Shown here: piece after piece, positions 31,306 through 56,847 of the stretch
Position numbering within the stretch: position 1 is the first letter of the stretch
Layout of the letters: each line of letters starts with the position of its first letter
Source: Candidatus Hydrogenedentota bacterium
Lineage (GTDB): Bacteria > Hydrogenedentota > Hydrogenedentia > Hydrogenedentales > SLHB01
Assembly (NCBI GenBank): GCA_045863295.1
Contig: BTWA01000001.1
Span: 244,337 to 308,336 of the forward strand
Length of the DNA: 64,000 nt
Reading direction: 5' to 3'
Notes under the pieces: model-generated
What the model saw: the letters and a program-made list of their open reading frames with translations, nothing else
What the model was told of the DNA's origin: nothing
The model's database searches: none
Made by a program: the position numbers and the translations under genes

Positions 31306-31537
31306 TCGTATTTGATGGATCCGGCGTGGAGTGCTGGAGGTGCTAGAAGATCGAATACGTGCGATGGATGGAAACGATGCGGTAACGTCCGGGTAGCCTG
31401 TATGGGGACAGGCCTCCCATGGGCTTGTTGAACAAGTTGATTCGCGGCGGCTCGGGTCGCGCAAAGTTGGAAGACAGCGGGTACAATAGAGAGGGGTTGG
31501 GGCTCTTCTCTAGGTGTAACCTCAGGAGTGATTCAAC

Positions 31538-32913: not shown

Positions 32914-32923
32914 GACGAACGAC

Positions 32924-34078
32924 ATGCGGCGGCATTCTTCATATGGTTTTACCCTGACCGAACTGCTGGTGGCCGTGGCCATTCTGGCGGTGGTGTTCAC
33001 GTCGATCGTCGCCATTTTTGTTGCCAGTGTGCGCGCCATGAAGACCAGCTTCGTGGCGATGGACGCCAACGAACTCGCGCGCACGTCATTCACGACGGTC
33101 GAGAAAGATTTGAAGACGCTCTATGCATCGCGCGATTTCGGCCAGTACTACCAATTTCACGGCACGCCCGTGGGGTTCAGCGGCATTGGCCTGATTCGCA
33201 ACACCCGCGCTTCCGCCGATACCTATTCGCAACTTGGCCGCGTGACCTATGCGCTGTTTCCCAACCCGCAGCCGAATGCGGGCACCGAAGGCGATTTCAG
33301 CGGGTTTGACGGCTACTACAGCTACAACGTGGACGCCACCGGCACGCCGCTGAACGTGACCACGATGTCGCTGGTACGTTTTGTGGAGCCGGGCATCACC
33401 TCGCTCGATCATTATCCCCCGGAATTCTGGGAGACGCTGATGACCGATCCCGAGTTCGGCACCGGCGTAGCGGCGGTCCTCTCGACGGCCTGCAACTGCG
33501 ATCCGTTGAATCCGGTCCAGGTGGCGAGCCTTACGCCCGAGCGCGAGACGTTGCTGAACGCCGCGAAGCGATCGCTGTGGGTAAACCTTATGGCATGGCA
33601 GTTCGAGCCCGGCGTGATTGACCCTGATCTGCAATCGCTGAATGTGTGGGACGGGTTGCTGCGGCCCACGTTTACACTCAATCCGGCGGATTACGTGATT
33701 ACGGAATCGATCCGTACGCCCAACCTGCTCGATCCCGCGTACAACCCGCTGGATACGAATCAAGCTTTTTTCTCGTACGGCGTTCAGTACGAAGGGAACA
33801 CGCTGGGCCAGGGGCTGGAGATGCGTCCCTTCTGGCCGCATTGGGCGCGGCTGGACAGTTGGTCCACGCTGGCCAATCTGAGCAATGCGCAGAATATGTT
33901 TGCGGTTCACAGTATTTACTACGGCAATTTGTCGCCGTTTGCGCCGCGCGTGCCCGAGATGGTCATGGTGCGATTCCCGATGACCTTCGCCAGCCCGTAT
34001 CCCGGCGCGCCGGAGTATTCACGAGAGTTGGAAATTATGGTGGATGTGCCCGTGGGGCAGATGCGGAATCCGCAATGA
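32924..34078 (+). CDS. Minor pilin (PilW/GspJ-like position)
   Basis: G|FTLTELLVAVAIL; AR..FTTVEKDL; C-terminal VPEMVMVR. Confidence 0.8.
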   Translation: MRRHSSYGFTLTELLVAVAILAVVFTSIVAIFVASVRAMKTSFVAMDANELARTSFTTVEKDLKTLYASRDFGQYYQFHGTPVGFSGIGLIRNTRASADTYSQLGRVTYALFPNPQPNAGTEGDFSGFDGYYSYNVDATGTPLNVTTMSLVRFVEPGITSLDHYPPEFWETLMTDPEFGTGVAAVLSTACNCDPLNPVQVASLTPERETLLNAAKRSLWVNLMAWQFEPGVIDPDLQSLNVWDGLLRPTFTLNPADYVITESIRTPNLLDPAYNPLDTNQAFFSYGVQYEGNTLGQGLEMRPFWPHWARLDSWSTLANLSNAQNMFAVHSIYYGNLSPFAPRVPEMVMVRFPMTFASPYPGAPEYSRELEIMVDVPVGQMRNPQ

Positions 34079-41067: not shown

Positions 41068-41268
41068 AGACGGCCCGAGGCGGGATTTTGTCCGGCGCCT
41101 CGGCCTAAGGGAATTGCTTTAACCATTCGGGGATGGGCCGCGGTAGTGGCTCATGGGTTCGTGGGTTTCGTAGAGCAGGTCTGAGCCGATGGGCTGCAGG
41201 CCCGGGGCATAACGGCACTTCGCCGTGGATTGCCTCGGCCGCCGGACCTGAAACAGGAGTCGTAGTGC

Positions 41269-44200
41269 ATGCGCAAGGGGTATCGCAATCACACCGGGGG
41301 GTATTGGGCCGGGTGGATCGCCCTGCTGGCGCTTTGTTTTTCCGCATCGGTGGCGTGGCCGCAGGATGTCGTGGTGTGTCAGACCGGCGACTGCGGATCC
41401 TACACGCAGGACTTCGACAACCTGGAAGAAGGCGTCATCGAAGCGATCCGGCGCGCGCGCACGAGCGGCAATCAGTATGTGACGGTGTTTCTGGTCGAAC
41501 GGGCCGACGGCGCGGCGTGGGAAGGCGGGTTTGGCATCCCCGCGGATGCGAACATCGCGATCCTGGGTGTGCCGTTGGATGCCGACGGCGGCCGGTCGAA
41601 CGACATTGAGATTACGGGCACGGGTTCATTGCCGGCGTTGACGATCAGCACGGAACCCGGCGACTTGCCGGTTGACGCGCAGTATTTTGGCGGCGCGGGC
41701 ACCGGCCTTCGCATTGAAGGCGTGGCCTTGGTGAATAGCACCGAGGGGCTGGTCATCAAGGGCGATGTCGCGACCGGCGATTATATGCCCGTTATTTCAC
41801 GGTGCTATATCTCCGGCAACGCGAGTTCGATCGCCACCGAAGGCAATGGAGTTCGCGTCGAAGGCGAGGCATCGCCTTTGCTGGTCAATTGCAGCATCGT
41901 GAAGAACGAAAACGCAGGCGTGCTGGTGACCGGCACGGAAGGGGCGTTTGCCGAAATACTGCATTGTTCGATTCTCTACAATGAGATGTACGGCGTGCAC
42001 GTCACTGGAACGACGAACAATGCGCGGGTGCGCAATTCGCTGGTGTACCGCAATGGCAACGAGCCAGACGGTACCACGGATGCGAATGATCACGGCGGCC
42101 TCGTGTGGGACACGAATCCATTTATCGATCCCGACACGGGTCCTGTGGCGGGCGGCATTACCGTCATCATCAAAGGGTTTGATTTGACCAGCCCGCTAAT
42201 CAATCCCGGAAATTCGGATACCAATACCCATATCTTTTTCGGGCCAATGCACCATCCCGATACCGAGGCGGTTACATGGGTACTGACCTCGCGCGATGGC
42301 ACGACCGGGTTTGAAGTGCTGACGGTGACATTGCCGCCGTCCTATCTTGGCGCGCCGGGCCCGGTGGATGTGACCATTCAACGGGTTGACACGGGCCAGA
42401 TTCAGACCGTGCGCAACGGGTTTGTCTACGTGGCGGACGGGGGCGAAGCGCCGGTGGTGATGCAAGTGATTGCGGAGCACGGGCCGAGCGCGGGCGGCAA
42501 CATTGTCGCGGTGTACGGGGCGAACTTTGAAGAGCACTGCGACGTGTTCTTCGATTTTGAAGGGTCCATCGGTTCCATCAGCGTGGCGGAGCAATGCGAG
42601 TTTGTGGAATGGCTTTCGTCGGGCCATTTGATTGTGAAAGTGCCTGAATATATCGATCTTGGCGGCAACCGGCGCAAGGTGGATGTTCTGGTGCGCAACA
42701 ATACCACCGGCATCATCAGCGATACGGGCCAATATCGCGAGTACGAATACCGGATCGACGAAGACGATTTGTTGCGGCCTGTCGTGGTGCAGATCGTGCC
42801 GAATTACTTCCGCGACCTGGAGGGCACGGACGGCGCGCAGAACCTGTTGGCCGATGTGGAAGTGTGGGATGCGGAACCCGGCGCGACGATCAAGGTCGGG
42901 GGAATTCTGTGTCCTTACGAAGAGCGCGTGCGGATTTCGACCTCGGATACTCCGCCGGTGGATGTCACGGATCCCGAGAATGCGGAGTTGTGGGAGTTGC
43001 ACAACGTGCGCATTCCCGTGGCCGAATTCGGGTCGGGTGGATCGTACGACGTTGAAGTGACCAATCCGACCGGGTTGTACGATATTTTGCCGAGGGCGTT
43101 CACGTATTACCCCGACGGGGTCGAGCGATTTGAGCCCAACGAGCGGGGATGGCGCCCCTCGAACTTTGTCCGCCGCGACGGCGGCCTTTTGGGCACGCTT
43201 CCGTTCCGGTTGTTGGGCACGGGTTTCGATTGGGAGATCGCCATTCGGGTTCTGGGGAATTCCGGTTTTGGCGGATCGTTTCCGGTGCTTCCGAATCCGC
43301 CGTTGCGCGTATTTCCACACGAAGTCGATCCACCGCACGCACGCCATACGCAGCGCGAGGTGTTCTTCAATTTTCCGCCCGCGCCCGAGCAGGCTCCGTT
43401 TCTGTTCAATCCGGGCACCGGGTTCCTGAACGTCACCATAAACAACGTGGCGACGGCGACCGGCGATTATTCGTCCACGGACGTGCAGGACGTGGAAGAA
43501 CGGTTTTTCTATTCGTCGGCGTTGGAAGAGCCGACGGTGGGCGATCGGTCGCTCTATTTTGAAATCGAATTGCCGCTGGTGGTGGATGCGGGCAACGGCC
43601 CGAACGGCCGCGACATCATTACGATGACCGTGTTGAACTGGCGGAACGCGATGCGGGTGTACGTTGCGGATACCGCTGTAACGAAATACCTCGACGGCGG
43701 CGCGGACGGGTTTTCGGATACCGATCCGGACGCCGATCAGAATAATCCCAGCGACAACGTGCCCGATTTCGCGGAGCCCGCGGTCGGCACGACGGGAACG
43801 ATTCAGTTTGAAGCGCCGCGCCAACCGCAAGGCGTGGCGGGTCCCGTGGATGTGTGGATTCTATTGCCCGACGATGCAACGGCGCACAACACGCAAGCCG
43901 CCGATCTCTATTACTACGCGGAGAAGTCGTATAGCGTGCGGCCGGAGGCGCGACCGATCGTGCGCGCCGTCGTGCCGCGCACGCCGCCGGAAGACACGTT
44001 TACCGATGACAATCCTGTTCGGGTTCTGGGGTCCAACTTTGTTGGGCCGGTGGATCCCGCGGGTTGGTTTACCAACATTTGGCTGGACTGGGGCGACGGC
44101 ACCAATCTCACCGATGGCAACGAGATCTCGCTTGGACCGGTCAGCGGGGCCCCCGGCGCGGGAGCGCCTCCGACGGGCACCTATCAGGTGAATTCGTTTA

Positions 44201-47200
44201 ACGAGATCGAGTTCACGTTGGATCTGCCCACGTTGCGTTCGACGAATCCGTTGTTGTTGTCCGACGTGCCGGTTACGGTGGTGGCGGCGCTGATGAATGC
44301 GGCGGGCGCGGTGTATCAATACAACGGTTCCGATCTCAGCTTTATCCTGACCGATGCGCTTTCGTTCGAGTCGCTCGCGCCCATCATCGATGACGTGACG
44401 CCGTTGGATGGTCCCGTGGAAGGCGGCACGACCGTGACCATCACGGGCCGCAACTTCTTCCCCGACGGCACGACGCCGCCTTATGTGCGGTTCGGCGGCC
44501 GGGAAGCGCGGGTTCTCACCGCGACGCCCGGCGTTTCGGGTTCCCCTGATGTGATCGAAGTGGAATCGCCGCCGGCGCATTTGAATTTGCCGGCGACCGT
44601 CGCGATTCAGTTGATCTCGGTTGACAGCACGGTGCCTAAATTGCGCGAAGCGGTCTCCGAGAAGGAATGGTGGTTCACCTACTTCATGGACGGCAAGCCG
44701 CAGTTGCGGTCCATGTCGCCCAATCACATGGCGTTTGACGACACCTTCACGCAATACGCAACCCTTACGGGATTGAATTTCGACGATGTAGTAATCGTGC
44801 GCTTCTTGGATGCCGCGGATCCGACTGATATTCGCGCGGAACGCACGATGTACAGTGAATCGCCGACGACCATTCAGGTGAAGTTGCCGTTGCCCGGGGA
44901 ACTGGTGACCGAATCCGAAGTGAACGGATTCAACAAGGCCTTGCTGGTGACGGTGCAGAACGACAGTTCGAAAACGCTCGTCGATGCGCAAGCGCAGGAT
45001 CTGATCAGCAATCCGGTTTTGTTTACGGTGTTCGACGACTCCATCGGCGATCTCGAACCGCAAACCGCGACGCTGCTGTTTAATGACGTGTTCTGGAATC
45101 AGCAGGACTATGTAAACGTGCATCCCGGCGAGGGGAGCATTTCCGTCGATCCGTTGCTGGACCCCGGACCGGACGGCGAAGTCGGACCGCGTCTGGTGTT
45201 GACCGATTCGGATACGTGGTGGCTGGGCAAGTTGGCGCTGGGCCGCGAATCGATTTCGGGCATCGTCGACAATCCCTTGCGCGACAAGGCGGGTGAATTT
45301 ACGTTGGTGCCGTTCTCCAGCGAGGATCTCGAATTAGAAGTGCGCCCCGATAGCGCCAATGGTTTCGGCACGCAGGGCAACGGCGAATTCGGATCGCAGG
45401 ATACCGCGCAGCGCGGCCTGCCGGATATTGGCGCGGACGAAATCAACGACTTCCCCGACGATCAATGCTTGTGGTACTACGCGCGCGTGTTTCCGAGTCC
45501 GGTGGGCCGGTTGGATGCGGGCGAATTGCAGATCGACATCCGGTTGATTGGTTCGACCGATGCACCTGAAGTGTACATTGTTCCCCAAGGGTTCCTGCCG
45601 GCGGATGTGGTGGCGGATCCGCCCATTCCGCTCAGCCTGCAGGCGACCCTGGGTGAGAACGCATACCGCTACACCAACGACGAGCCGATCCCGCTCGCGG
45701 AAGACGGCAATCTGGCGAATCCCGACGATCCGGATGAGCCAATTGTGGACGGTCACGCCACGCTCATCATCACGTGTGGCGGCACCATCATCGGCGCCGA
45801 TCCCAGCGATCTGACCGAAGGCGGCTTGATCTTCGATCAGGCTATCACGGGCCGGCACTTCCTGATCGACACCGTGCCGCCGCGCATGTTTGTGGAATAC
45901 CTCGTGCCCGGCAATACCGCCGTGGGCGTGCAGCAATTGATCTTCGATGCGAGCGGCATCACGGTGGGCGGCCTGCCGAGTATCGACGTGTTCCCGCCGA
46001 CGACGGATTATACCGATCAGATCACCGCGCTGAGCGTGGAGCCGTTGTACCACCCGTTCCCCGCGACACCGGCCGTGCTCGGCACCATTCCGCCGTTGAA
46101 CTGGACGCCGGCCACCGATTTCATGCCGCAGGATTACGGCGGCGTGATCGATCTGGCGTTGCGAGGCACGCAGGGCGCGCAGGTATTTTTTAATCGCGGG
46201 TCGCAGGCGAATCCCGATTTTGCCGCGTCGCCGGTGTTGGTGGAATTTCCCATTGGTGTCCGGTTTGTCGATCCGCCGGTGACCAACGACGAGACATTGC
46301 CTCTGGATTCCGCGATGCGCATCAACGGCGACGACTTCTTCACGAGCAGTGACATCCGGCAAGTTTCCGGTTTCCCCGTGTTGGCCGAAGCGTACGCGCA
46401 GTACGCGCGCTTCCGAGTCGTGTCGTCCACCGGCCAGGAGCAATATTTCGTTGATCGTGCATCCGGTTCTCCGAGGCAGGATGTCGTGCCGCAGAATGGC
46501 ACGGCCGCCGATGCGGCGGAAGTGGCGGATGCGGTCATTGGCAACGAGGGCGTGTTCGATCCGGGCTTGGTGCCGGGCGATTCCGTGCCCGATCCGGCGA
46601 GCGTCGAAAATCCGGAAAACGATCAGATGCTTGGATTATGGAACATCCGTTGGGATCGTTCCTACGACACGTCCGCGGATCCGACGGGACCGTATCATGT
46701 GTCGCTGCAATTCGAGGCCGAGGATTTGGCGGGCAACGTGACCCGGCAGGAAATGCTGCTCGATCCGCTGCAACTGTGGTGGTTCCAAAACGTGCAGAGC
46801 CGCCTGTCGCCGAGCCGCGAAGGGCGCCGTGTGAACAGCGCGAATTTCACGCTGAGTCTCGAACGCACCGACGCGCCGATCGTGAACGGCGGTCCACCGC
46901 CAATTTTCATGTATCGCGTGTGGCAGGGCGGGCCTGATTTCGTCAACGACTACAACGCCGTTTACACGCCGGTTAGCGGGTGGAGCGTGTGGTCGCCGGA
47001 CCTGCTCATCAACACCGTCGAGGGATTGGTGCAGCCGGAGCATTGGGTGTTGGTCGTTGTGCAGAGCGCGGATGAAGCAGGCAACGTGGAACCATGGCCC
47101 AATTTCGACGTCGCGTCCGGCGGTCTGAGGCCGGATCCGGATGCGGCCATCGATTTCAGCGATCCCGATACATTGAACACGTATCTCTATCCTGAATACG

Positions 47201-47823
47201 TCGGCCTGACGTTGAGCCAGTTTGCCATCCAGGCGCCGAACTGGCAGCGGTTCTACCTGACCGGGGCGGCCGCGCCGGACACCATCGTGAAGCCGACGTT
47301 CTGGCACAACCAGATAAGCACGGGCAATCCCGAAGCGATTGATGGCGACGAGATCACGTTCGGCCAGTCCACCATCATACCCATGGTGCCGGAATCGCAG
47401 ATCGGGCAGCGGGAAGTGGAAGCGACCTTTGAGTTGTTGCCCGTCCGACCCAGGGACATGGAGCCGTCGAAGCGGATCTACATGGTGTGGCAGCTGCTTC
47501 AGAACGGCGTGGTCCTCATTCCGCCCGATTTTTCAAATCCGCTCACGCCGGAAGAACTGTTGGATCCGGATCTGAACCCAATTCGACTGGCCCTGGATGA
47601 AGGCGTCGCGTTGGGCGATCCAGCCCGGTTGCTGCCGTATACTTATGTCTTTCAGGCGGCGGCGTTTGTCGATGAGAACAACAACAGCCTGTTCGACAAC
47701 CAGGATTATGTGGATCCGAGTCCCGCCTCCGTGCTGTTTGTGGTGACTCCAACCGACATTGCCGGGTTTGTACGGCCGCCCGAAAGCGACGAGCAGCCCA
47801 TCAAAGAAACGGAAACGCAGTGA
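41269..47823 (+). CDS. Giant secreted protein (2184 aa): parallel beta-helix, ~8 IPT/TIG domains, C-terminal Ig-like domains
   Basis: AGGAG RBS; signal peptide; ISRCYISGN, LVNCSIVKN, ILHCSILYN rungs; GPVAGG..IKG, GPSAGG..YGANF, GPVEGGTTVTITGRNF; DLAGN, DEAGN. Confidence 0.8.
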   Translation: MRKGYRNHTGGYWAGWIALLALCFSASVAWPQDVVVCQTGDCGSYTQDFDNLEEGVIEAIRRARTSGNQYVTVFLVERADGAAWEGGFGIPADANIAILGVPLDADGGRSNDIEITGTGSLPALTISTEPGDLPVDAQYFGGAGTGLRIEGVALVNSTEGLVIKGDVATGDYMPVISRCYISGNASSIATEGNGVRVEGEASPLLVNCSIVKNENAGVLVTGTEGAFAEILHCSILYNEMYGVHVTGTTNNARVRNSLVYRNGNEPDGTTDANDHGGLVWDTNPFIDPDTGPVAGGITVIIKGFDLTSPLINPGNSDTNTHIFFGPMHHPDTEAVTWVLTSRDGTTGFEVLTVTLPPSYLGAPGPVDVTIQRVDTGQIQTVRNGFVYVADGGEAPVVMQVIAEHGPSAGGNIVAVYGANFEEHCDVFFDFEGSIGSISVAEQCEFVEWLSSGHLIVKVPEYIDLGGNRRKVDVLVRNNTTGIISDTGQYREYEYRIDEDDLLRPVVVQIVPNYFRDLEGTDGAQNLLADVEVWDAEPGATIKVGGILCPYEERVRISTSDTPPVDVTDPENAELWELHNVRIPVAEFGSGGSYDVEVTNPTGLYDILPRAFTYYPDGVERFEPNERGWRPSNFVRRDGGLLGTLPFRLLGTGFDWEIAIRVLGNSGFGGSFPVLPNPPLRVFPHEVDPPHARHTQREVFFNFPPAPEQAPFLFNPGTGFLNVTINNVATATGDYSSTDVQDVEERFFYSSALEEPTVGDRSLYFEIELPLVVDAGNGPNGRDIITMTVLNWRNAMRVYVADTAVTKYLDGGADGFSDTDPDADQNNPSDNVPDFAEPAVGTTGTIQFEAPRQPQGVAGPVDVWILLPDDATAHNTQAADLYYYAEKSYSVRPEARPIVRAVVPRTPPEDTFTDDNPVRVLGSNFVGPVDPAGWFTNIWLDWGDGTNLTDGNEISLGPVSGAPGAGAPPTGTYQVNSFNEIEFTLDLPTLRSTNPLLLSDVPVTVVAALMNAAGAVYQYNGSDLSFILTDALSFESLAPIIDDVTPLDGPVEGGTTVTITGRNFFPDGTTPPYVRFGGREARVLTATPGVSGSPDVIEVESPPAHLNLPATVAIQLISVDSTVPKLREAVSEKEWWFTYFMDGKPQLRSMSPNHMAFDDTFTQYATLTGLNFDDVVIVRFLDAADPTDIRAERTMYSESPTTIQVKLPLPGELVTESEVNGFNKALLVTVQNDSSKTLVDAQAQDLISNPVLFTVFDDSIGDLEPQTATLLFNDVFWNQQDYVNVHPGEGSISVDPLLDPGPDGEVGPRLVLTDSDTWWLGKLALGRESISGIVDNPLRDKAGEFTLVPFSSEDLELEVRPDSANGFGTQGNGEFGSQDTAQRGLPDIGADEINDFPDDQCLWYYARVFPSPVGRLDAGELQIDIRLIGSTDAPEVYIVPQGFLPADVVADPPIPLSLQATLGENAYRYTNDEPIPLAEDGNLANPDDPDEPIVDGHATLIITCGGTIIGADPSDLTEGGLIFDQAITGRHFLIDTVPPRMFVEYLVPGNTAVGVQQLIFDASGITVGGLPSIDVFPPTTDYTDQITALSVEPLYHPFPATPAVLGTIPPLNWTPATDFMPQDYGGVIDLALRGTQGAQVFFNRGSQANPDFAASPVLVEFPIGVRFVDPPVTNDETLPLDSAMRINGDDFFTSSDIRQVSGFPVLAEAYAQYARFRVVSSTGQEQYFVDRASGSPRQDVVPQNGTAADAAEVADAVIGNEGVFDPGLVPGDSVPDPASVENPENDQMLGLWNIRWDRSYDTSADPTGPYHVSLQFEAEDLAGNVTRQEMLLDPLQLWWFQNVQSRLSPSREGRRVNSANFTLSLERTDAPIVNGGPPPIFMYRVWQGGPDFVNDYNAVYTPVSGWSVWSPDLLINTVEGLVQPEHWVLVVVQSADEAGNVEPWPNFDVASGGLRPDPDAAIDFSDPDTLNTYLYPEYVGLTLSQFAIQAPNWQRFYLTGAAAPDTIVKPTFWHNQISTGNPEAIDGDEITFGQSTIIPMVPESQIGQREVEATFELLPVRPRDMEPSKRIYMVWQLLQNGVVLIPPDFSNPLTPEELLDPDLNPIRLALDEGVALGDPARLLPYTYVFQAAAFVDENNNSLFDNQDYVDPSPASVLFVVTPTDIAGFVRPPESDEQPIKETETQ

Positions 47824-47830
47824 CATTCGC

Positions 47831-47859
47831 TTGCACAGGAACCCATATTGCGGTTTAAT
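47831..47859 (+). promoter_or_regulatory. Putative sigma70 promoter
   Basis: TTGCAC, 17-nt spacer, TTTAAT upstream of the PEGA-FGE gene. Confidence 0.45.
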
Positions 47860-47943
47860 GTCATAAGCCGAGCGCAAGGCCGGAGTTGAGCGGGTCCGCC
47901 GTGCCCATCGTGGCTGTCGGACGGCGAAACAGCAAAAAGCAGT

Positions 47944-49362
47944 GTGAGGCTTATGAAGCGTCAGAGCAGGTATTTGCCAACCCGTCTGCTCGTGTGGGGT
48001 GTCGTGGCGGGTTTGGCGGCGTTGGTGTCCGCGTGCGGGGGCGAAAAACAGCCCCTGCTCAGCAATACCGTGGAAATTCACGCCGAACCCGAAGTGAATG
48101 CCGCCATCATTGTGGACGGAACGCAGATCGGGGAGACCCCCTTGACCCTCACCAATGCGGCCCCCGGACTCATTCTGCTTCAGTTGAAGAAGGAGGGGTA
48201 TCGCGATAAATGGGAATCGGTGGTGGTGCCGCCGGAAGGCAAGGCGGAAATCACGGTCCCGATGGAACTCATCCTCGGGTACCTTTCCATCACCACGGAG
48301 CCGCCTGGCGCTTCGGTGGTCCTCAGCGACGGTACGGAGTTGGGCACCACCCCCATCCTGCGCGCCGGTCTGCCGTTGGGGGAATACACCTACGAAATCA
48401 GGCTCGAAAATCACGAGACGCTTACCCATACCGTGATGGTGGACCGGGAGTCTCTGTTCAAGCTGGCGCACAACCTGAAACCGCGATCCGCCACGCTGGT
48501 GGTTTTCTCAGTGCCCACCGGGGCATCACTCTGGTTGAACAACCAATTGCAGGAAGAGCGCACGCCAGCCCGGCTTTCCGTGGCGCCGGGCACGTATACC
48601 GTGACCGTGCACTCCAAGGGCTACGTTATGTCCGAGGAGGTTGTTTCCGTGAATCCCAACACGGAAAAGCGCCTCGAACTGCGCATGAACGAGGGCAATG
48701 CCCCCCCGGGCATGCTGCTGATTCCCGGGGGTGAGTTCATCATGGGGTCGGATCAGGGGTCGCCCGACGAGCGCCCGGCCCGGAAGCTGTCCCTGGAGGC
48801 CTTTTATCTGGACAAGTACGAAGTCACCAACGAGCAATACAAAGCTGTCTACGCCGCGCACGAATTCGAAGAGGGAGAAGAGGACCACCCGGTTACCGGG
48901 GTCACGTGGCTGGAAGCGGTGAAATACGCGGAAACCGTTGGCAAGCGGCTGCCTACCGAGGCGGAATGGGAGAAAGCGGCCCGCGGAACCGACGGCCGGG
49001 AATATCCGTGGGGCCCCCTGTTTGACAAGACCCTCTGCAACTCCCTGGAGGGGTCCTTGAACAAGACCGAGACCGTCGGGACCTATTTGAACGGCGCCTC
49101 TCCGTATGGTGTAATGGATATGGCAGGAAATGTCTACGAATGGGTCGCCGACTGGTACAACCCCTATCCGGGCAACCAGGTTGTCGACAAGAACTACGGT
49201 CAAGTGTACCGTGTTCTTCGGGGTGGGTCGTTCAAGACCGGGGCTTACGAGGTCCGGTGTCTCCGGCGTACCTTTGATCGCCAGGATCTGGGCCGGAACG
49301 ATTACGGGTTTCGTTGTGCGCTGGATGTAAACGCGGCATCGGGCACGACGCGCGAGCCTTAA
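47944..49362 (+). CDS. Putative lipoprotein with 3 PEGA domains and C-terminal FGE-sulfatase (SUMF1-like) domain
   Basis: Lipobox VSAC; ITTEPPGASV, SVPTGASLWLN; FIMGS..DERP, LDKYEVTN, RLPTEAEWEKAARG, DMAGNVYEW, RVLRGGS, GFRC. Confidence 0.9.
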   Translation: MRLMKRQSRYLPTRLLVWGVVAGLAALVSACGGEKQPLLSNTVEIHAEPEVNAAIIVDGTQIGETPLTLTNAAPGLILLQLKKEGYRDKWESVVVPPEGKAEITVPMELILGYLSITTEPPGASVVLSDGTELGTTPILRAGLPLGEYTYEIRLENHETLTHTVMVDRESLFKLAHNLKPRSATLVVFSVPTGASLWLNNQLQEERTPARLSVAPGTYTVTVHSKGYVMSEEVVSVNPNTEKRLELRMNEGNAPPGMLLIPGGEFIMGSDQGSPDERPARKLSLEAFYLDKYEVTNEQYKAVYAAHEFEEGEEDHPVTGVTWLEAVKYAETVGKRLPTEAEWEKAARGTDGREYPWGPLFDKTLCNSLEGSLNKTETVGTYLNGASPYGVMDMAGNVYEWVADWYNPYPGNQVVDKNYGQVYRVLRGGSFKTGAYEVRCLRRTFDRQDLGRNDYGFRCALDVNAASGTTREP

Positions 49363-49388
49363 AACAATTGTCAAAGGGGATTTTACTC

Positions 49389-49417
49389 TTGACAACGGCC
49401 TTTTTCTTTAATACACT
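49389..49417 (+). promoter_or_regulatory. sigma70 promoter of pilM-secretin operon
   Basis: TTGACA, 17-nt spacer, TACACT; inverted TTGTCAA at 49368-49374. Confidence 0.7.
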
Positions 49418-49556
49418 GGAATCAAAGATTTAGGTACCCTTTTTCTGGTGTTACAGGGCAGTATTTACCCTGTGGCTTGGGATTAGTCGTGAATGCTTGC
49501 ATGCCAAGGCGTTGAGTGGGGGACGTAACGGCCGCGAGCGCCGAAAAGGTGACACC

Positions 49557-51857
49557 ATGGCGAATCTTAAACGAACCCGGGCCAAGAAGCGGTTGGTGCT
49601 GGACGTAGGGGCCAGCGCGGTACGGCTTTGCGAGCTTTCGCAGACCAAGACGGGTTACCAACTCACGCGCTACATGCAACGTGAGTTTCCCATCACGCCC
49701 GACATGAGCGAAGAAGATCAGCTCGCCGCGCGCGTCGAAGTGGTGAAGGCGCTATTGAAAGAATCCAAAGTGCGCCACAAGAAAACCGTGTTCGGCGTTC
49801 CCGGTCAATCGGTGTTCACGCGTACCCGCATGTTGCCTCCCGTCCCTGAGTTTAAACTTACGCAAATCGTTCGTTACGAAATCCAACAGCAAATTCCTTT
49901 CGCGCTCGATCAGATCGCCCATGATTTCCAGGTATTGGAACGCACTGAAGCCGGCGGATACGACGTGCTGATGGCGGCAATCAAAGTGGACGTCGTCGAG
50001 AAGCGCCTCGAATTGGTCAAGCAGATCAAGCGTCAGATCGACATTGTCGATGTAAGCCCATTGTCCGCGTACAACTGGCTGAAGTCGACCGGCGAATTTG
50101 GCGAACAGGGCGAATGCGTCGCCCTGGTGGATGTGGGCGCCGCGACCACCGACATTGTGATTGAGCGCGAAGGCAAATTCCGCTTTACGCGCAGCCTGAA
50201 TATCGGCGGCAACGACGTGACCTCCGCGCTGGCGCGCGAATTCAACATGGAATGGCCCAAGGCCGAACAGTTGAAACGCGAACGCGGTTTCGCACCCTCG
50301 GGCGACGCGCAAAAAGACGGCAAGGGCGGCGAAGTCATAGGCTCGGTGCTGAACCGGCTGGTTTCCGAAGTCAACCGGTCGTTTGCCTATTTCCGTTCGC
50401 AACCCGGCGGCGGTCCAGTATCTCGCGTGATATTGACTGGTGGCGGCGCGTGCCTTCGTAACATCGTGCCGTTCCTGCAGCGGCAATTGGGCGTGGAAGT
50501 GCGCATTGCCCAGCCGCTCGCGGGCCTGGCCATCGCGCCCGGCGCGCAAGAGGCCAACGATCATCCCGAACAAGCGGCCGTGGCATTGGGCTTGGCCTTG
50601 CGCTGCCGTCAGGCGGTGGCGCTTGAGCTGAATCTCATTCCGCCGCGCATCCTCGAAGCGGCGCGCACGCGCGAGCAGGTTTTCTATTGGGCATTGTCCG
50701 CCACCACGCTTGCGCTCATCATGCTTTCGATTATTCCCGTGGAAGCGCAGAAGAACAAGCAGGTCAATGAAAACATCGACCTGTTGAAGCGCACCATGTT
50801 CCAGTACGATCCCGATTTTCAGGCCCAGCAGAATCAGAATCCCTCGGTGTGGAATACCAAGTACGAAGCGCAACTCTCCGCGGCCAAGGCGGAAGTCGAT
50901 CGATACAAGGTTGACGTGGTCACGCTGGATAACTTCTACCGCGAGCGCGTGCCGTGGGTGCGCTACATGGGCATCATTAACGATGCGCGTCCCCGCGGCC
51001 AGATGATGGTATTCGATACCATGGAATCGAGCCTGATGCGCTCCCGCGCGGAGATGGTGCGTCAGGTGGCCCGCCGCAAGGCCAGCGGCCTTGGCAACGT
51101 GCAATTAAGCGCGGGCGACATGGCCGCGCTCAGCGGCGGGTCCGGATCGCTGATTCCCAAAGGCAAGGAGCAGATTTGGGAAGCCGTGCCGTTCGACAAT
51201 ATCGCAGCCGGCGTACCGCTGGATTACGGCCAGCCGGGCGTGGAGGGTTTGACGAGCACCCGCGGCGGATCGAGTTCGTCTTCCTCAGAAGAGAAGCCGC
51301 TCCCCAAGCCGGATCTGGTGAACGCGATTTCCATTTACGGGTACGCACAGAACAACCAGGTGGTGCTCGAATTCGTGGAGAACATCAAGAAGTCGGGCGA
51401 GTTTCTCGGTGGCCAGGGCGTGTACTTCGATCCGGCCACGGTGAATCCGGTTCCGGTTTCCGCGTTGTACAACGCCGGTTCCGAGCGTGCCGGCGCCCAA
51501 CCCAAGCCCGGCACGGGGCTCGGCGATTCCACGGCCTCGGTAAACGATGAAGACGAAGATCGGCGCGAAGGACGCCGGGGCGGCCTTCTGGGCGGCGGCG
51601 GCAGCAGCAGCAGCAGTTCCGGCCCAAGGTCGTATACCGAAAAGGATCTGGCGTTTTACAACCTGGAACAGAGCATTGTGACGTTTGAGGTTCATTTGCA
51701 GTTCAAGGACGAGGTGATTACCGAACAGAAAGTGCTTACTGCCGCGGATGAAGCCATTGCATCCGGCACCGCGGACAGCTATGGCGCTGCAAACGATGAA
51801 GAGGGAATGGACGAGGAGACGATGGAGCGCGAGCAGCGCCGTTTCCGGGGCCGGTAA
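49557..51857 (+). CDS. pilM: PilM fused to PilN-like domain
   Basis: LDVGASAVR; YEIQQQIPF; VDVGAATT; IGGNDVT; LTGGGA; GLALR; then LNLIP, TM, coiled coil and ISIYGYA (PilN-like). Confidence 0.88.
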   Translation: MANLKRTRAKKRLVLDVGASAVRLCELSQTKTGYQLTRYMQREFPITPDMSEEDQLAARVEVVKALLKESKVRHKKTVFGVPGQSVFTRTRMLPPVPEFKLTQIVRYEIQQQIPFALDQIAHDFQVLERTEAGGYDVLMAAIKVDVVEKRLELVKQIKRQIDIVDVSPLSAYNWLKSTGEFGEQGECVALVDVGAATTDIVIEREGKFRFTRSLNIGGNDVTSALAREFNMEWPKAEQLKRERGFAPSGDAQKDGKGGEVIGSVLNRLVSEVNRSFAYFRSQPGGGPVSRVILTGGGACLRNIVPFLQRQLGVEVRIAQPLAGLAIAPGAQEANDHPEQAAVALGLALRCRQAVALELNLIPPRILEAARTREQVFYWALSATTLALIMLSIIPVEAQKNKQVNENIDLLKRTMFQYDPDFQAQQNQNPSVWNTKYEAQLSAAKAEVDRYKVDVVTLDNFYRERVPWVRYMGIINDARPRGQMMVFDTMESSLMRSRAEMVRQVARRKASGLGNVQLSAGDMAALSGGSGSLIPKGKEQIWEAVPFDNIAAGVPLDYGQPGVEGLTSTRGGSSSSSSEEKPLPKPDLVNAISIYGYAQNNQVVLEFVENIKKSGEFLGGQGVYFDPATVNPVPVSALYNAGSERAGAQPKPGTGLGDSTASVNDEDEDRREGRRGGLLGGGGSSSSSSGPRSYTEKDLAFYNLEQSIVTFEVHLQFKDEVITEQKVLTAADEAIASGTADSYGAANDEEGMDEETMEREQRRFRGR

Positions 51858-51921
51858 ACCGTGTTGATGTCCAAGGCAGACCGTTTGTCGTGGCCGGTTT
51901 AATGCGAGTGGTCAAACTGAC

Positions 51922-52953
51922 ATGAAGCGTTCGCAGATAATGATGATAGTCGCCATCGTGGCCGTAGCGGCCGCGCTGGGTGCGGTATACAAATTCTACG
52001 TGCTCGAACGGCTGACCAAATTCGCCTCGGACGAGAAGTATCTGACCGCGCTCAAGACCAAGTACGAAAACATCAGCAAGACCTTTCACGGCACCAAGCC
52101 CGAAGTGGTGGTCGAGGCCTACGCCAACAAAGTACAGCCGTGGCTGGCCGCACTGGATGCCCGGACGGATTACTACACCCTTGGCGGCATCCGCGACATT
52201 GAACCGATTCCCGAGGGCGAAGACGCCCGCTGGTATTACATTCGCAAGGCCCCGGACATGGTGAGGACGATCCAGGAGACGGCGTACAAGCAGAACATCG
52301 GCGTGCCGCCCGATCTCTGGTTTCAATCGCCCCAGCCTCCCCGGCTGCAGGGCATCACCGTGGAAAAGCAGCACGTAGAACGCTGGCTCCAGAACATTCA
52401 AATGGGTTCCGGCATTGTGCAGCAGTTGCTCGATGCCAAGGCTCTGCGGGTCGATGCCATTGAACTGTGGCCCCGCCGGGAAGGATCGTTGCTGTACATC
52501 TATCACGTAGGCGTGAAGATGTGGATGAACATGGAGCAACTGGCCACGTTTCTCAACGATATGCTCAGCGATCGCCGCCGTTGTTTCTTTGTCGACAACA
52601 TCCGTATCCGGAATCCGTACGTGTTGTACGAGAATCCTCCGCTCCAGATCGATCTCGTGTATACCATGTACGAACTGAAACCGACGGCAGACAAAACCAA
52701 GCTTGCCGCTCCGGCCGCGGCTGCGCCGATGATTGCCAGTGCGGCACCGGTTACGCCTGCGCCGGCCGCGACGACGCCGGGCGTCACGCTTCCGGGCGCC
52801 ACGCCGCCCCCGGCCGCCGTGCCGGGTCTGAATCCGGAAGCGGCCGCGGCGCTGCAACAGGCGGCAAGCAGCCGCGATGAAGAGCGGACCGCGCGCCAAA
52901 GCCAGGGCAGCGGCGACTTTTTGGATTGGATATTGTCCTTCTTCCCGTTCTAA
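51922..52953 (+). CDS. PilO-like protein with Ala/Pro-rich tail
   Basis: N-terminal TM; LATFLNDM..FFVDNIRI ferredoxin-like pattern; position after pilMN. Confidence 0.55.
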   Translation: MKRSQIMMIVAIVAVAAALGAVYKFYVLERLTKFASDEKYLTALKTKYENISKTFHGTKPEVVVEAYANKVQPWLAALDARTDYYTLGGIRDIEPIPEGEDARWYYIRKAPDMVRTIQETAYKQNIGVPPDLWFQSPQPPRLQGITVEKQHVERWLQNIQMGSGIVQQLLDAKALRVDAIELWPRREGSLLYIYHVGVKMWMNMEQLATFLNDMLSDRRRCFFVDNIRIRNPYVLYENPPLQIDLVYTMYELKPTADKTKLAAPAAAAPMIASAAPVTPAPAATTPGVTLPGATPPPAAVPGLNPEAAAALQQAASSRDEERTARQSQGSGDFLDWILSFFPF

Positions 52954-53025
52954 TCGGGAAGCAGGTTGAACGATGGAACACAGTACAGATAGCGCGTACG
53001 GCGGAAAAACCGGGCCAAGGTAGCC

Positions 53026-53562
53026 ATGGACCAGATACAAAAATTCGGATTGATGCTGTGGGCGGTCAAGGAAAAGATCGTCCTGGCCTGCCTGGTCGCG
53101 ATCCTGAGTTGGCAGGTGTACAAGGTGGTCATGAGCGCCAACGGCGCCGATGCCGGAGTATCCGTCGGGCCGGTGACGCCGCCAAAGCCGGAGTTGACCG
53201 ATTTGCAGGCGATCGGAGCGGAATCGCCGGGGCCGCCCCCGGAGCCGATTCGGGTGCAGGAATTTACGGCCCTGGTCCGGCGCAACCCGTTTACGGTGTA
53301 TGGCAATGAGGCTGGCGAATCCAGCGGCTCCACGCAAGTGGAAGAAAAGCTGGATCTGACGCTTGAACGCATTGTTCCCTGGAGGGACAACACGGTACGG
53401 GCACAGATACGCACCAAGACATCGCGCGCAGAACCTTATTACGAAGGTCAGTCCGTGGAGGACTTCAGAGTGGACAAGATCGATGCGGAGAAGCAGGAAG
53501 TGACCATCTTTTCCTTCAAGCATCAAAAGCAGTTCGTTTTGAAAGTCGGACAGACCAGTTGA
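53026..53562 (+). CDS. PilP/GspC-like protein
   Basis: N-terminal TM; RRNPF motif; beta-rich C-terminus YEGQ..FRVDKID; position before the secretin. Confidence 0.55.
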   Translation: MDQIQKFGLMLWAVKEKIVLACLVAILSWQVYKVVMSANGADAGVSVGPVTPPKPELTDLQAIGAESPGPPPEPIRVQEFTALVRRNPFTVYGNEAGESSGSTQVEEKLDLTLERIVPWRDNTVRAQIRTKTSRAEPYYEGQSVEDFRVDKIDAEKQEVTIFSFKHQKQFVLKVGQTS

Positions 53563-53619: not shown

Positions 53620-56600
53620 ATGAATGGTCGACGGATGCGGAAGGCCGCCGGAATGTCGTTGCTGTGCCTGCTCGTGGCGGCAATGACGGTATACGGCGGA
53701 GCGTTGACTGCCCAGGCGCAGGGGGCATCGGGCGCCGTGGAAGCTCCAATTGTTACCGAGCCCCAACCCACCGCCGCGGAGAGCGGTCCCGAACCCCAGG
53801 GCGTGAGCCCGGCGGACGAGGCCTACAATGAAGGGGTGGCTCTCTACAACCGGGGCATGTTCCTGGAGGCCTTGAACAGTTTTAACAGGGCCCTTGCGAA
53901 CGATCCCAATCATCCTCACGCGAAGACCATGGCGGAACGCGCCCAGACGAAGTTACAGACCACGGCCGTAGGCCAGGAACCGGCTGTGCTTCAGACGTTC
54001 GAAACCTTCGAAGCCAAGCCCGCGGAATCGGAGACGACTTCCGATGCAGGCATTCCCGAATCGGCCGAAGAACTCCGCTACCAGACGGTGAAGGAACTGC
54101 TTGAGCAAGGCCAATTCCTGCTGGAGAACCGCAAGTTCGAACGTGCCCAGAAATTATTCGAGCGCGCCCTGATTATCGATCCCGAGAACAAGACCGCGGC
54201 CCGTCTGCTGCAAGAAGCGACAATCGGCACCTTTGACGAACGGCTTCCCCGCGAATGGCAGAAACTGGAAATCGACCGCCTCCGCATTCGCGAAAAGAGC
54301 GAACAAATCAAGCAACTCCCCGACGGCGCGGACGCATACGGCATCAAGGACATCACCATCAGCGTTCCGGTCGCCGAAGAAGAATTTGTCCGTGAAGAAG
54401 AAAAGACCGACATCGAAAAAGCGCTGGATGAATTCGTCTCCATTGAATTCGAAGAGGAACACATCAGCAATATTCTCGATTACATCGCGGAATACGCGAG
54501 CATCAACATCGTGCTCGACAGCCGCGTCGTAGACCCGCCGCGCCAACCGGTGCCGCAGGTCCAACCCGGCGTACCGGGCACAGTTCCCGGCGGCGTTCCC
54601 GGAATTCCCGGGCAGCCCGGTTTTGGCGCGCCCCAACCGTTCGGCGTTCCGGGTCAAGGATTTCAGCAACCAGTTCCCGTGCAACAGCCGGCCTTCGAAC
54701 CGACCGGCGATCCCGATGAAGATCGCCGGGCGTCTCGTCGAGGCGGCGGCCTCGGCAACATTCAGTTGCAGGGCGTCAACGGCCAGTTTGCGACCGGCCC
54801 CGGCGGCCAGCCTGTGTCGGATATCGTTTCCGACGGGTACACGGGCATCTTGAAATTGGATGACGTGCCTCTTCGCGATGCCCTCAAGGCTGTGCTCCGC
54901 CCCCTGAATCTTGATTTCAGCGTGCAACCTGGTTTCCTGTGGGTGAGCACGGCCGAAAAGATTCGGACCGAATCGTTCGAAGAAATGGAAACCCGCATCT
55001 ACGAACTGAAAAATGCGGGCGCGGAAACGCTCTTCAAGATTGTCGTGCAGAACCCCGGCGGACTTTCCGGCGGCGGCGGTGGCGGCTTCGGCGGCCAAGG
55101 CGGCGGTTTTGGCGGCCAGGGTGGTTTTGGCGGCGGTCAAGGCGGTTTTGGTGGCGGTGGCTTTGGTGGTCAAAGCGGCGGTTTTGGTGGCGGTGGTTTT
55201 GGCGGCCAAGGTGGCGGTGGCTTCGGCGGCGGTGGCTTTGGCGGTCAAAGCGGTGGTTTTGGCGGCGGTGGTTTTGGCGGCCAAGGTGGTGGTGGTTTTG
55301 GCGGCGGTGGCTTCGGCGGCGGTGGCTTTGGCGGCGGTCAGGGTGGTTTTGGCGGCGGTCAAGGCGGTGGCTTTGGCGGCGGTCAAGGCGGTTTTGGCGG
55401 TGGCCAGGGCGGTTTCGGCGGCGGCTCCATCCAGGTCTCCAATATCTCCCAACTGTTCTCCAACATTAACGACCAACTCGTCGGTGAACCGCCTGCGGTC
55501 ATTGGCATCAGCACGGTTGGCACAGGGCTCGATGCGCGCCAGGGTCAGCAAGGAGCGGGTTTGGGTGCAGGCGGCCGGCGTGACGACGAGTTGGGCGGCG
55601 GCGGCCTCGGCGGCGGCGGTCTTAGCGGCGGCCAGACGGTCGGTACTTCCGGCACGGGATCCAGCTTGGGCAGCTCCGGCGGCTTGGGCGGATTCCAGGG
55701 TCAAGCTGAATTGCTGACCATATTGCAGAGCGCCATTCCCGAGATTGTCGAACCGTTCACCGACGAAGTGTTGTCGTGGATGATCTTCAATCCCACAACC
55801 AACCAACTCATCGTGCACAACACGCCCAGCAATCTGAAGAAAATGGAAGCGATGATCCAGGATCTGGACATTACGCCGAAACAGGTCAGCATCGAAGCGA
55901 AGTTTTTGGCCATATCCGTGACGGATCTCGACAAGATCGGCTTCACGTGGGACCTGACCCTGAGCGATCAGAACAGCCGCAATCGCGTTATTGACGCCAT
56001 CGAAACGCCCGGCGTCTCCGATGCGGACGGCAACCCCGGCTATTTTGCCGATGTCAACGGCGACGGATCGAACGAGATTCTCCCGTTCTATACGCGTCCC
56101 GACGGCACCAACGTAATTAACAACACCGTATCCACCCTTACCGGTACAGGCGCGGTGAATCCCGGACCCGACGGCACGTTTGACCTGAATGCGGTCATCC
56201 TGCAAAACGAGGACGGCGATCAATTGAGCGTTATGATGGACTACCTCAACAGCCTGACGGAGACCGAGTTGTTGAGCGCGCCGCGCGTGACCACGATGAA
56301 CCGCAAACCGGCGGTCATCGCGGATATCCTGACGCAGACGTTCCAGACTCAGGTCTTCCAAGAAATCATTGTGAGCGATTCCGGGTTTGGCGGCGGCGAA
56401 ACGACTGCCTCGGTGCAGCAACCACAATTCTCCACCTTTACGTTCGGTATCGTGTTGTCCGTTACACCGCAAATCAGCGGCAGCAATCAGGTCCGGTTGT
56501 GGCTGAACCCGCAGGTGACCACGCAACAGGGACAAGACGAATTCATCGCGACGTCCACGGTGGACGGAAACACGCAAACCGCGACCATCCGTTTCCCGCG

Positions 56601-56847
56601 CGTGTCGATTCAATCCGTCTGGACCAACGTCATCGTGAACGACGGCGACACGCTTGTGCTGGGCGGGCTCATCACGGATCGCACGACGCGCGGCAAGACC
56701 AAGATGCCGTACGTGGCGGACATTCCGGTGATCGGCTACTTCTTCCGTGGCAAGTCGACGGAAATCACGCAATCGAGCCTGTTGATCTTCACCACGGTGA
56801 ACATCATCGATCCGACCGGTGCACGCTTCTTCGAAGCGGGCGCATAG
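53620..56847 (+). CDS. Secretin (PilQ-like) with N-terminal TPRs and FG/Gly-rich insertion
   Basis: Signal peptide; TPR helices; VSIEFEE; NQLIVHNTPSNL; QVSIEAKF; LSAPRVTTMN; GIVLSVTPQI; PYVADIPVIGYFF. Confidence 0.9.
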   Translation: MNGRRMRKAAGMSLLCLLVAAMTVYGGALTAQAQGASGAVEAPIVTEPQPTAAESGPEPQGVSPADEAYNEGVALYNRGMFLEALNSFNRALANDPNHPHAKTMAERAQTKLQTTAVGQEPAVLQTFETFEAKPAESETTSDAGIPESAEELRYQTVKELLEQGQFLLENRKFERAQKLFERALIIDPENKTAARLLQEATIGTFDERLPREWQKLEIDRLRIREKSEQIKQLPDGADAYGIKDITISVPVAEEEFVREEEKTDIEKALDEFVSIEFEEEHISNILDYIAEYASINIVLDSRVVDPPRQPVPQVQPGVPGTVPGGVPGIPGQPGFGAPQPFGVPGQGFQQPVPVQQPAFEPTGDPDEDRRASRRGGGLGNIQLQGVNGQFATGPGGQPVSDIVSDGYTGILKLDDVPLRDALKAVLRPLNLDFSVQPGFLWVSTAEKIRTESFEEMETRIYELKNAGAETLFKIVVQNPGGLSGGGGGGFGGQGGGFGGQGGFGGGQGGFGGGGFGGQSGGFGGGGFGGQGGGGFGGGGFGGQSGGFGGGGFGGQGGGGFGGGGFGGGGFGGGQGGFGGGQGGGFGGGQGGFGGGQGGFGGGSIQVSNISQLFSNINDQLVGEPPAVIGISTVGTGLDARQGQQGAGLGAGGRRDDELGGGGLGGGGLSGGQTVGTSGTGSSLGSSGGLGGFQGQAELLTILQSAIPEIVEPFTDEVLSWMIFNPTTNQLIVHNTPSNLKKMEAMIQDLDITPKQVSIEAKFLAISVTDLDKIGFTWDLTLSDQNSRNRVIDAIETPGVSDADGNPGYFADVNGDGSNEILPFYTRPDGTNVINNTVSTLTGTGAVNPGPDGTFDLNAVILQNEDGDQLSVMMDYLNSLTETELLSAPRVTTMNRKPAVIADILTQTFQTQVFQEIIVSDSGFGGGETTASVQQPQFSTFTFGIVLSVTPQISGSNQVRLWLNPQVTTQQGQDEFIATSTVDGNTQTATIRFPRVSIQSVWTNVIVNDGDTLVLGGLITDRTTRGKTKMPYVADIPVIGYFFRGKSTEITQSSLLIFTTVNIIDPTGARFFEAGA
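55069..55425 (+). repeat. In-frame GGFGG/GGQ low-complexity repeat (18 FG motifs, 119 aa)
   Basis: Read directly from the translation; includes a duplicated 25-aa unit GGGGFGGQSGGFGGGGFGGQGGGGF. Confidence 0.95.

Follow-up and report, generated by a model that had tools for sequence, protein, structure and literature searches.

What role might a long tract of glycine and phenylalanine play inside the channel protein of a bacterial pilus system? The question is raised by a secretin gene in a 64,000 nucleotide stretch of Candidatus Hydrogenedentota DNA (GenBank assembly GCA_045863295.1, contig BTWA01000001.1, forward-strand positions 244,337 to 308,336), which as a whole is called the window here and to which all coordinates refer. 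The gene, an open reading frame (ORF) of 1075 aa at 53620-56847 on the + strand (protein P0001), is the final gene of a type IV pilus (T4P)-like cluster. A preliminary description of the sequence had seen in its N3 domain a nucleoporin-like insert of phenylalanine-glycine (FG) repeats. We found that this insert is probably a greatly enlarged form of a loop known from other secretins, that it is maintained in the family as a composition and not as a sequence, and that it may form a soft seal in the channel. The parts of the gene are as follows.

53620..56847, +, secretin gene P0001, 1075 aa (Pfam, Foldseek)
53803..54312, +, N-terminal TPR region, aa 62-231, fused to the secretin (Pfam TPR_2/TPR_1; AlphaFold2 helices at aa 64-231, predicted local distance difference test score (pLDDT) 84-97)
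54409..54969, +, N0-like domain, aa 264-304 and 401-450 (AlphaFold2, confident in both halves)
54982..55056, +, N3 strand 1 (TRIYEL) and conserved pre-insert segment NAGAETLFKIVVQNP (AlphaFold2 strand at aa 457-462; family consensus ETRYYELRNAGAETLFK)
55057..55428, +, Gly/Phe tract 1, aa 480-603 (composition; pLDDT 28-36)
55429..55545, +, conserved mid-insert motif, aa 604-642, IQVSNISQLFSNINDQLVGEPPAVIGISTVGTGLDARQG (regular expression on homologs; short AlphaFold2 helix)
55546..55701, +, Gly-rich tract 2, aa 643-694 (composition)
55702..55875, +, remainder of N3, aa 695-752 (AlphaFold2; second half of Pfam Secretin_N)
55876..56844, +, secretin beta-barrel domain, aa 753-1075 (Pfam Secretin; AlphaFold2 strands at aa 755-1063; Foldseek)

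That the host protein is a secretin, as had been proposed, was apparent from profile and structure searches alike. Pfam Secretin matched aa 877-1064 (E value 2.5e-30; 105.8 bits against a cut-off of 27.5). An AlphaFold2 model, built from an input alignment of 74 sequences, was confident for the TPR region, the N0-like domain, the N3 elements and the barrel, and Foldseek comparison of this model placed V. cholerae PilQ (6w6m) first (E value 7e-17), followed by GspD, InvG, PilQ and pIV. A profile search of the PDB with P0001 also gave 6w6m (E value 2.9e-41), and Pfam TPR_2/TPR_1 repeats were found at aa 66-198. With a C-terminal beta-barrel domain, N3 directly before the barrel and a pilus gene neighbourhood, P0001 belongs to the secretin superfamily (PF00263) and is PilQ-like. 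It scored below the NCBIfam cut-offs for PilQ (TIGR02515; 149.9 against 284.35), GspD (TIGR02517; 140.4 against 351.35) and the Amuc_1098 family (NF042912; 122.6 against 750), and since all three were missed we place it in a distinct secretin subfamily. The database copy of the protein (P0002) starts 11 codons downstream of the P0001 start.

Both ends of the insert are anchored in N3, so that it is looped out of this domain and is not an inter-domain linker. In the model, the strand at aa 457-462 is followed by aa 471-693 at a pLDDT of about 30, then by a helix at aa 697-705, strands at aa 720-724 and 729-734, a helix at aa 736-749 and the barrel. Downstream of the insert, Pfam Secretin_N matched with its C-terminal half only (positions 36-69, at aa 722-755; 23.3-26.3 bits, below the cut-off of 28.2), and in a Pfam scan of fragments around the insert the upstream fragment had no match. 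The preliminary description had placed the insert at 55069-55700, which is in frame with the ORF and corresponds to aa 484-694; its location inside N3, the flanks ETRIYELK before and LLTILQ..NQLIVHNT after it, the 18 FG motifs in a 119-aa tract (aa 484-602, within a pure tract of aa 480-603) and the further glycine-rich stretch (aa 643-694) were all as reported there. The sequence pattern of YELKNAGAETLFKIVV resembles strand 1-helix 1 of the GspD encoded in the same window (HLQYARAEDVEAALGALLG, then a poly-Gly/Ala loop of about 35 aa), and an alignment with Aeromonas ExeD agrees with this assignment but is non-significant. Read as strand 1-helix 1, this segment would put the insert at the classical variable-loop site. 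We conclude that the insert lies in N3, at or adjoining the known variable loop of secretins.

The second secretin just mentioned (12127-14805) is of the GspD type, with N0 and three Secretin_N matches, and belongs to the adjacent type II secretion system (T2SS) cluster. Its N3 loop is composed of Gly and Ala only and lacks aromatics, which supports an earlier caveat that glycine-rich N3 inserts occur in other secretins.

The insert of P0001 comprises 215 residues per subunit in three parts, the Gly/Phe tract 1, a 39-aa motif and the Gly-rich tract 2. Tract 1 (124 aa) has the composition G90 F18 Q11 S4 L1, with zero charged residues and no Pro, and is built of units such as GGGGF and GGGQGGF. 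Its 18 FG motifs lie at aa 490-599, every one within GFG, at a Phe-Phe spacing of 5-8 residues and a density of one per 6.2 residues; Gly makes up 73% of the tract and GLFG is absent. The piece between the tracts (aa 604-642) is non-repetitive and includes a short helix at aa 609-612, predicted at low confidence (pLDDT of the motif 39-50), which recurs at 411-416 in the model of the short-insert homolog P0088. Tract 2 has G24 L6 S6 Q4 among its 52 residues, with Leu, Ser, Thr or Gln between the glycines. Such sequence is far from a chance occurrence: windows of 40 aa with at least 50% Gly were found in 12 of the 11,514 six-frame ORFs (at least 150 aa) of the 6.3-Mb genome, and the longest was that of the secretin.

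At the DNA level tract 1 consists of imperfect tandem repeats (periods of 15, 21, 39, 45 and 75 nt; 60-90% matches), whose units share the codon pattern GGC GGC GGT CAA GGC GGT TTT. Its Gly codons are GGC (52), GGT (37), GGA (1) and GGG (0). Three contigs of the probable source run cover the tract with zero mismatches (54400-55242, 55215-55332 and 55305-56400), and since contigs end inside tract 1, the precise number of repeats hinges on the assembler. When variants of tract length were sought in the Logan contigs of four runs, the joint sides were only 21-27 nt at 90% likeness; these joints probably come from other Gly-coding sequences.

To see what is conserved we turned to the family. A search with the core (aa 695-1075) gave 133 proteins at E values of 1e-10 or below, 120 of them listed, and the family sample consisted of P0003-P0093 (core identity 43-67%) together with P0001, 92 proteins in all. 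Both flanking anchors were present in 89; P0014, P0073 and P0074, from which the 5' part is absent, were omitted from the family counts. The homologs with names are from Candidatus Hydrogenedentes/Hydrogenedentota. The insert ranged from 69 to 230 aa (median 172) and was at least 100 aa long in 83 of the 89 homologs. Gly made up at least 40% of it in 71 and at least 50% in 41. Lys accounted for 5 of 14,610 insert residues, with zero in 84 of the 89 proteins, and Arg for 2.6%. The core of the mid-insert motif was recognized by regular expression in 70 of the 89, and the tracts were not alignable. The leading residue between the glycines, which we call the sticker, was Phe in 39 inserts, Met/Tyr in 25 (Met-type relatives have GGMGG units), Tyr, often with Arg, in 12 and Leu in four, the other nine being of another kind or short. 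FG motifs numbered at least eight in 29 inserts and two or fewer in 44; the Phe is not conserved, an outcome that the preliminary description had named in advance as telling against its own reading.

Sticker type switched at least 24 times on a FastTree tree of the cores, against a mean of 43.8 for shuffled labels, and so is clustered on the tree yet labile. Sticker density was 0.148±0.035 in Phe-type inserts (n=31) versus 0.321±0.041 in Met/Tyr-type inserts (n=25; Mann-Whitney p 2.5e-10, uncorrected for phylogeny). A simple compensation, in which the types would keep equal hydrophobicity, was not supported, Met/Tyr tracts being more hydrophobic per residue than Phe tracts. Since Phe, Tyr, Met and Leu each need at least two base changes from GGN (Arg needs one), their regular presence points to selection and not to drift. 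The insert is thus kept as a composition or material, not as a sequence. In one subclade (P0032, P0042, P0049 and P0053) the mid-insert motif is another one and Tyr and Arg are interspersed (P0032: Y21 R20), an arrangement that we take to recall the Tyr/Arg sticker pairs of eukaryotic phase-separating proteins.

The long glycine-rich N3 insert is lineage-specific, and within the Hydrogenedentota-type secretins it is lineage-wide. All nine complete secretins of this type in genome contigs had Gly-rich segments, while among 94 further full-length 50%-cluster representatives of related secretins a Gly-rich stretch of at least 40 aa was found in four, one of them in-family. In loci of the Planctomycetes-Verrucomicrobia-Chlamydiae (PVC) type, with 28-33% core identity, 8 of 50 had a Gly-rich insert at the corresponding site, and each of these inserts has short conserved motifs of its own (the insert of L056 has 125 aa, with G71 M14). 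The secretin ORF was cut at the locus start by a contig end in 19 of 28 Hydrogenedentota loci, 12 of which begin inside Gly-rich sequence (loci L011-L036); the repeat breaks short-read assemblies, and secretin genes are therefore often truncated in metagenome-assembled genomes (MAGs). The DNA of the secretin locus is also present in bioreactor and sludge metagenomes.

Two further frames of the same genome carry related sequence. The 5.8-kb contig C77 encodes, at 4091-5311 on the + strand, a truncated paralog with a signal peptide, an N0-like part and the start of N3. A Gly/Phe tract of 97 aa with 10 FG motifs comes next, then the mid-insert motif, beyond which the sequence diverges and stops. 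This paralog could represent a pseudogene or a misassembly, or else a free-standing FG protein of the periplasm. Contig C5 has at 117619-119334 on the - strand a divergent secretin-like frame of 572 aa with a weak Pfam Secretin match and a short GGFGG insert, GGFGGGSFGGGSFGG, after a TLFKIVLKN segment; the 25 kb to either side contain no ORF of more than 900 aa.

What might such a loop do? Published structures offer a starting point. In InvG the variable loop (residues 217-267) links the first helix to the second strand, is disordered in other secretins and has been proposed as the periplasmic constriction (PMC6155069). Loop 288-303 of PulD is unresolved in a structure that shows N3 constriction sites (PMC6882859), pIV has a disordered N3 loop directed to the pore centre in an N3 ring 74 Å wide (bioRxiv), a Ser-rich N3 hairpin of BfpB forms a curtain beneath the gate (PMC12114550), and the VcPilQ channel at N3 is 60 Å across (PMC7545093). 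Work on Nup98 indicates that FG cohesion needs overall hydrophobicity and the absence of negative charge, not Phe itself, and that its FG domains tolerate other motifs if hydrophobicity is kept (PMC9918544). The composition of the secretin inserts, uncharged, Lys-free and Gly-dominated with Phe, Tyr, Met or Leu (and in some Arg), is that of cohesive low-complexity domains, and for this reason we read the loops as a cohesive mass. We tentatively favour a function in which the insert forms a cohesive, compressible plug or gasket at or below the N3 ring, under the gate. In a 12-15-mer the loops would adhere to one another and make a soft, compressible mass at and below that ring. In an empty channel this mass would be an additional plug; with a pilus and its bulky tip in transit it would yield and act as a self-closing gasket. 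Both the cohesion and the sealing are putative.

Several observations weigh against a plug or gasket at this place. The position of the loop relative to the lumen is presumed from other secretins only. The preliminary description had taken the N3 loop to face the lumen, and the published loops at or in the channel agree with this in part; in InvG with the needle in place, however, the loop leaves the lumen, threading outward between N3 and N1 and becoming partly ordered (PMC6155069). In the AlphaFold2 models of both P0001 and P0088 the ETLFKIVV segment is low-confidence coil and the helix after the insert is the first confident helix of N3, so that the site could be strand 1-helix 1 and not helix 1-strand 2. 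The volume is also awkward. By an estimate that uses standard residue volumes, 12-15 inserts sum to 217-271 kDa and would fill, when dry, a column of 58-111 Å in a channel of 60-74 Å; at a volume fraction of 30% the column would be 194-369 Å, about the whole length of the secretin or more. This is too large for the ring, so that much of the mass would lie below or outside it and would have to be displaced, like the InvG loop, by a pilus occupying the lumen. Tract 1 is 38, 45 and 140 aa long in P0047, P0048 and P0052, whose cores are near-identical, and 53 versus 111 aa in P0016 and P0019; this unstable length may mean either that it is unconstrained or that the repeat was collapsed in metagenome assemblies. 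Mean hydrophobicity is unequal between the sticker types (on one hydrophobicity scale, 0.37 for Met/Tyr versus 0.21 for Phe), and a few members (P0028, P0082) have Ser- or Asn-rich inserts instead of Gly-rich ones.

Other parts of P0001 also have unusual sequence. The N0-like domain, which gave a weak two-piece profile match to N0 of 6w6m (residues 154-241; independent E values 0.083 and 49), is split by a 96-aa loop rich in Pro, Gly, Gln and Val (aa 305-400, nt 54532-54819; pLDDT 30-41). This loop has the composition G21 P20 Q14 V10 and contains elastin-like VPG units (GVPGTVPGGVPGIPGQPG); the family consensus there consists of PGxPG repeats, and in P0009, P0058 and P0077 FG motifs occur in it. 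Early in the secretin domain, at about aa 795-830 (56000-56110), is a conserved insert rich in Asp, Asn and Gly, of low to moderate AlphaFold2 confidence, with the family consensus YDINGDGxxExIPFYxRPDGS, which presumably recalls calcium-binding loops.

The secretin gene closes a long run of pilus genes. A canonical T2SS cluster at about 11-24 kb of the window (GspC, D, E, F, pseudopilins, K and L) adjoins the T4P-like cluster at 24-57 kb, of which the rest is as follows.

24316..53562, +, remaining genes of the T4P-like cluster: two PilB-like ATPases and one PilT-like ATPase, PilC, four prepilin-type proteins, two giant proteins, an FGE-sulfatase/PEGA protein, a PilM-PilN fusion and two unassigned genes

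The PilT-like ATPase implies repeated extension and retraction. A giant pilin is encoded in the cluster by the 2473-aa frame at 33646-41067, which has a Lamin-tail domain and, from its residue 204, a GspK / Verru_Chthon_A-type N-terminus, and hence encodes a minor pilin of about 2270 aa whose true start is near codon 204. The second giant (41269-47823) is a secreted protein of 2184 aa with an ordinary signal peptide and beta-helix and TIG domains. The gene at 47944-49362, between these giants and PilM-PilN, is of a kind not usual for pilus clusters. Its product has an FGE-sulfatase domain, three PEGA domains and a weak likeness to the type IX secretion system ring lipoprotein PorK/GldK.

A correlation of the insert with giant pilins, which the preliminary description had called for as a test, was seen in raw form. 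GspK-like frames of at least 1000 aa were present in 6 of 8 PVC genomes with a Gly-rich secretin insert versus 1 of 12 without (Fisher p 0.0044). The Gly-rich label in this set amounts to two clades, however, so that only two independent contrasts exist and there is no significance, and the association was lost under an independent-pairs control. Among five Hydrogenedentota genomes with Gly-rich secretins, whose MAGs are fragmented, one had a giant frame (2412 aa); the related loci were taken with a flank of 10 kb, too short to include upstream giant ORFs. The link of the insert to giant pilins is suggestive.

Other explanations share some of this evidence. The conserved 39-aa motif could be the functional element, docking on a neighbouring subunit, the N0 ring, the gate or the inner-membrane platform, with the Gly-rich tracts as mere flexible tethers (contours of about 45 nm and 19 nm). 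Persistence of the motif core in 70 of the 89 homologs while the tracts cannot be aligned fits this, as do the short helix in both AlphaFold2 models, the conserved short motifs that PVC relatives have of their own between Gly tracts, and the ordering and docking of pieces of the InvG loop between N3 and N1 of neighbours (PMC6155069). A plain tether needs neither regular Phe, Tyr, Met or Leu nor the exclusion of Lys, Asp and Glu, though, the pLDDT of the motif is only 39-50, and its partner is not identified, no complex prediction having been run; we consider a purely docking role rather doubtful. The nucleoporin-like sieve of the preliminary description, in which more than 200 FG motifs would form a lumen gel specifically admitting giant tip pilins, draws on the 18 FG per chain in a tract without charge, on the pilin of about 2270 aa in the same cluster and on the PVC counts just given, and YG phases can be selective too (PMC9918544). 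Against it, Phe leads in only 39 of the 89 inserts and 44 have at most two FG, the giant-pilin association comes down to two clades and one of five Hydrogenedentota genomes, and a receptor analogue is not known. FG motifs separated by Gly spacers also come about every 6 residues, twice as densely as the Nup98 norm of one per 12, and shorter FG spacers give denser, stricter, hypercohesive phases that in vitro exclude even transport receptors (PMC9918544); the tract has 124 aa versus 500-700, and the summed inserts when hydrated are too bulky for the ring. What stands of the nucleoporin analogy is its physics, a cohesive, uncharged chain of stickers and spacers at a channel wall, and what falls is the membership and the FG-specific claim. 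A strict FG-nucleoporin sieve is unlikely, and we give the selective gel for giant pilins a low probability.

Replication slippage in a permissive surface loop could also have produced a tolerated expansion, whose role would be only that of an ordinary short N3 loop. The imperfect tandem DNA repeat with its shared codon pattern, the very unstable length between near-identical proteins, the contig breaks in 19 of 28 Hydrogenedentota loci (12 starting inside Gly-rich sequence) and the plain poly-Gly/Ala loop of the in-window GspD are what such slippage would leave. It does not readily account for an insert of at least 100 aa kept in 83 of 89 homologs across 43-67% core identity, for the near absence of Lys and the regular stickers that need at least two base changes from GGN, or for the rarity of such inserts in related secretins (4/94) and in the genome (12/11,514 ORFs), and we think it improbable as a full account. 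Gly-rich repeats are able to form polyglycine-II bundles, and an ordered structure of this kind, or a beta-rich collar, could make an extra ring in the oligomer. The regular period of 5-8 residues is all that speaks for order; the pLDDT is about 30 throughout, neither AlphaFold2 model has secondary structure in the tracts, and period, length and sticker type vary freely among close relatives, so that this explanation is very improbable.

The cohesive plug or gasket thus remains the function that we put forward, and it allows a broader and more speculative proposal, which we hold with considerable reserve: Hydrogenedentota and some PVC bacteria may independently have evolved a condensate-type, self-healing channel barrier, in which 12-15 tethered Gly-rich chains below the secretin gate, obeying residue rules known from cohesive low-complexity domains of eukaryotes, would make a rubber-like plug and a gasket that passes a retractile pilus with a giant tip pilin and then reseals. 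How secretins with lumens of 6-9 nm remain tight during the passage of pili, needles and folded proteins is an open question, for which explanations so far have looked to the beta-hairpin gate. If the proposal is true, a cohesive N3 loop would be a second, material-like sealing principle, and the barrier would correspond in function, in a prokaryote, to the FG phase or to abductin, with Phe, Tyr, Met, Leu or Arg as stickers and without Lys, Asp and Glu. Such a loop would, moreover, be one of few cases in which sequence rules of the condensate type operate in the bacterial periplasm. The family supplies natural variants for testing the sticker rules (Phe, Met/Tyr, Tyr/Arg, Leu and the Ser- or Asn-rich exceptions). 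In a limited full-text search of the literature we found no paper on FG or long Gly-rich inserts in secretins.

It is of interest to set P0001 beside the systems that it resembles. The T4P secretins of the Amuc_1098 family and PVC bacteria have the same TPR-N0-N3-secretin architecture, and their pilus systems share with the P0001 cluster a PilM-like neighbour of the Amuc_1101 type and Verru_Chthon-type pilins; core identity to P0001 is only 28-33%, however, and the long insert is absent from most PVC members. With Nup98-type FG domains, tract 1 has in common that it contains FG motifs, is disordered, is extremely poor in charge and is fixed to the wall of a wide channel, and in both, cohesion tolerates other hydrophobic residues. 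It is charge-depleted, disordered low-complexity sequence with FG (0 charged residues in 124 aa, pLDDT about 30). There is no homology between them. Nup98 FG domains have one FG per 12 residues over 500-700 residues, prevalent GLFG and selection against Tyr (PMC9918544), whereas tract 1 and its family depart from them in FG spacing, in length, in the absence of GLFG and in the conservation of FG among orthologs. The tract is 73% Gly where Nup98 has polar spacers, its Phe is unconserved and Tyr-rich variants are common in the secretin family, and transport receptors are not known for it.

In composition the closest match is abductin, a random-coil compressive elastomer low in Pro with the consensus GGFGGMGGGX (PMC13052691). 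The tract and abductin are nearly identical in this respect, both being Gly-rich, low-Pro repeats, and the secretin family likewise uses Phe and Met, to which it adds Tyr. Abductin is an extracellular, cross-linked animal material, and the likeness is compositional, convergent at most and not one of homology. By position the nearest relatives are the N3 variable loops of InvG, PulD, Aeromonas ExeD (6i1x, Gly-rich) and BfpB (Ser-rich), which occupy the same domain and, ahead of strand 2, the same connection or the one beside it. Like the P0001 insert they are disordered and often Gly/Ser-rich, and they have been placed at the periplasmic constriction below the gate. At 215 aa versus about 16-51 aa the P0001 insert is four- to ten-fold larger than these known loops, and it differs from them in being bipartite with a conserved middle motif, in its regular Phe, Tyr, Met or Leu stickers and in lacking Lys. 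It is probably a new and greatly enlarged version of the known secretin N3 variable loop.

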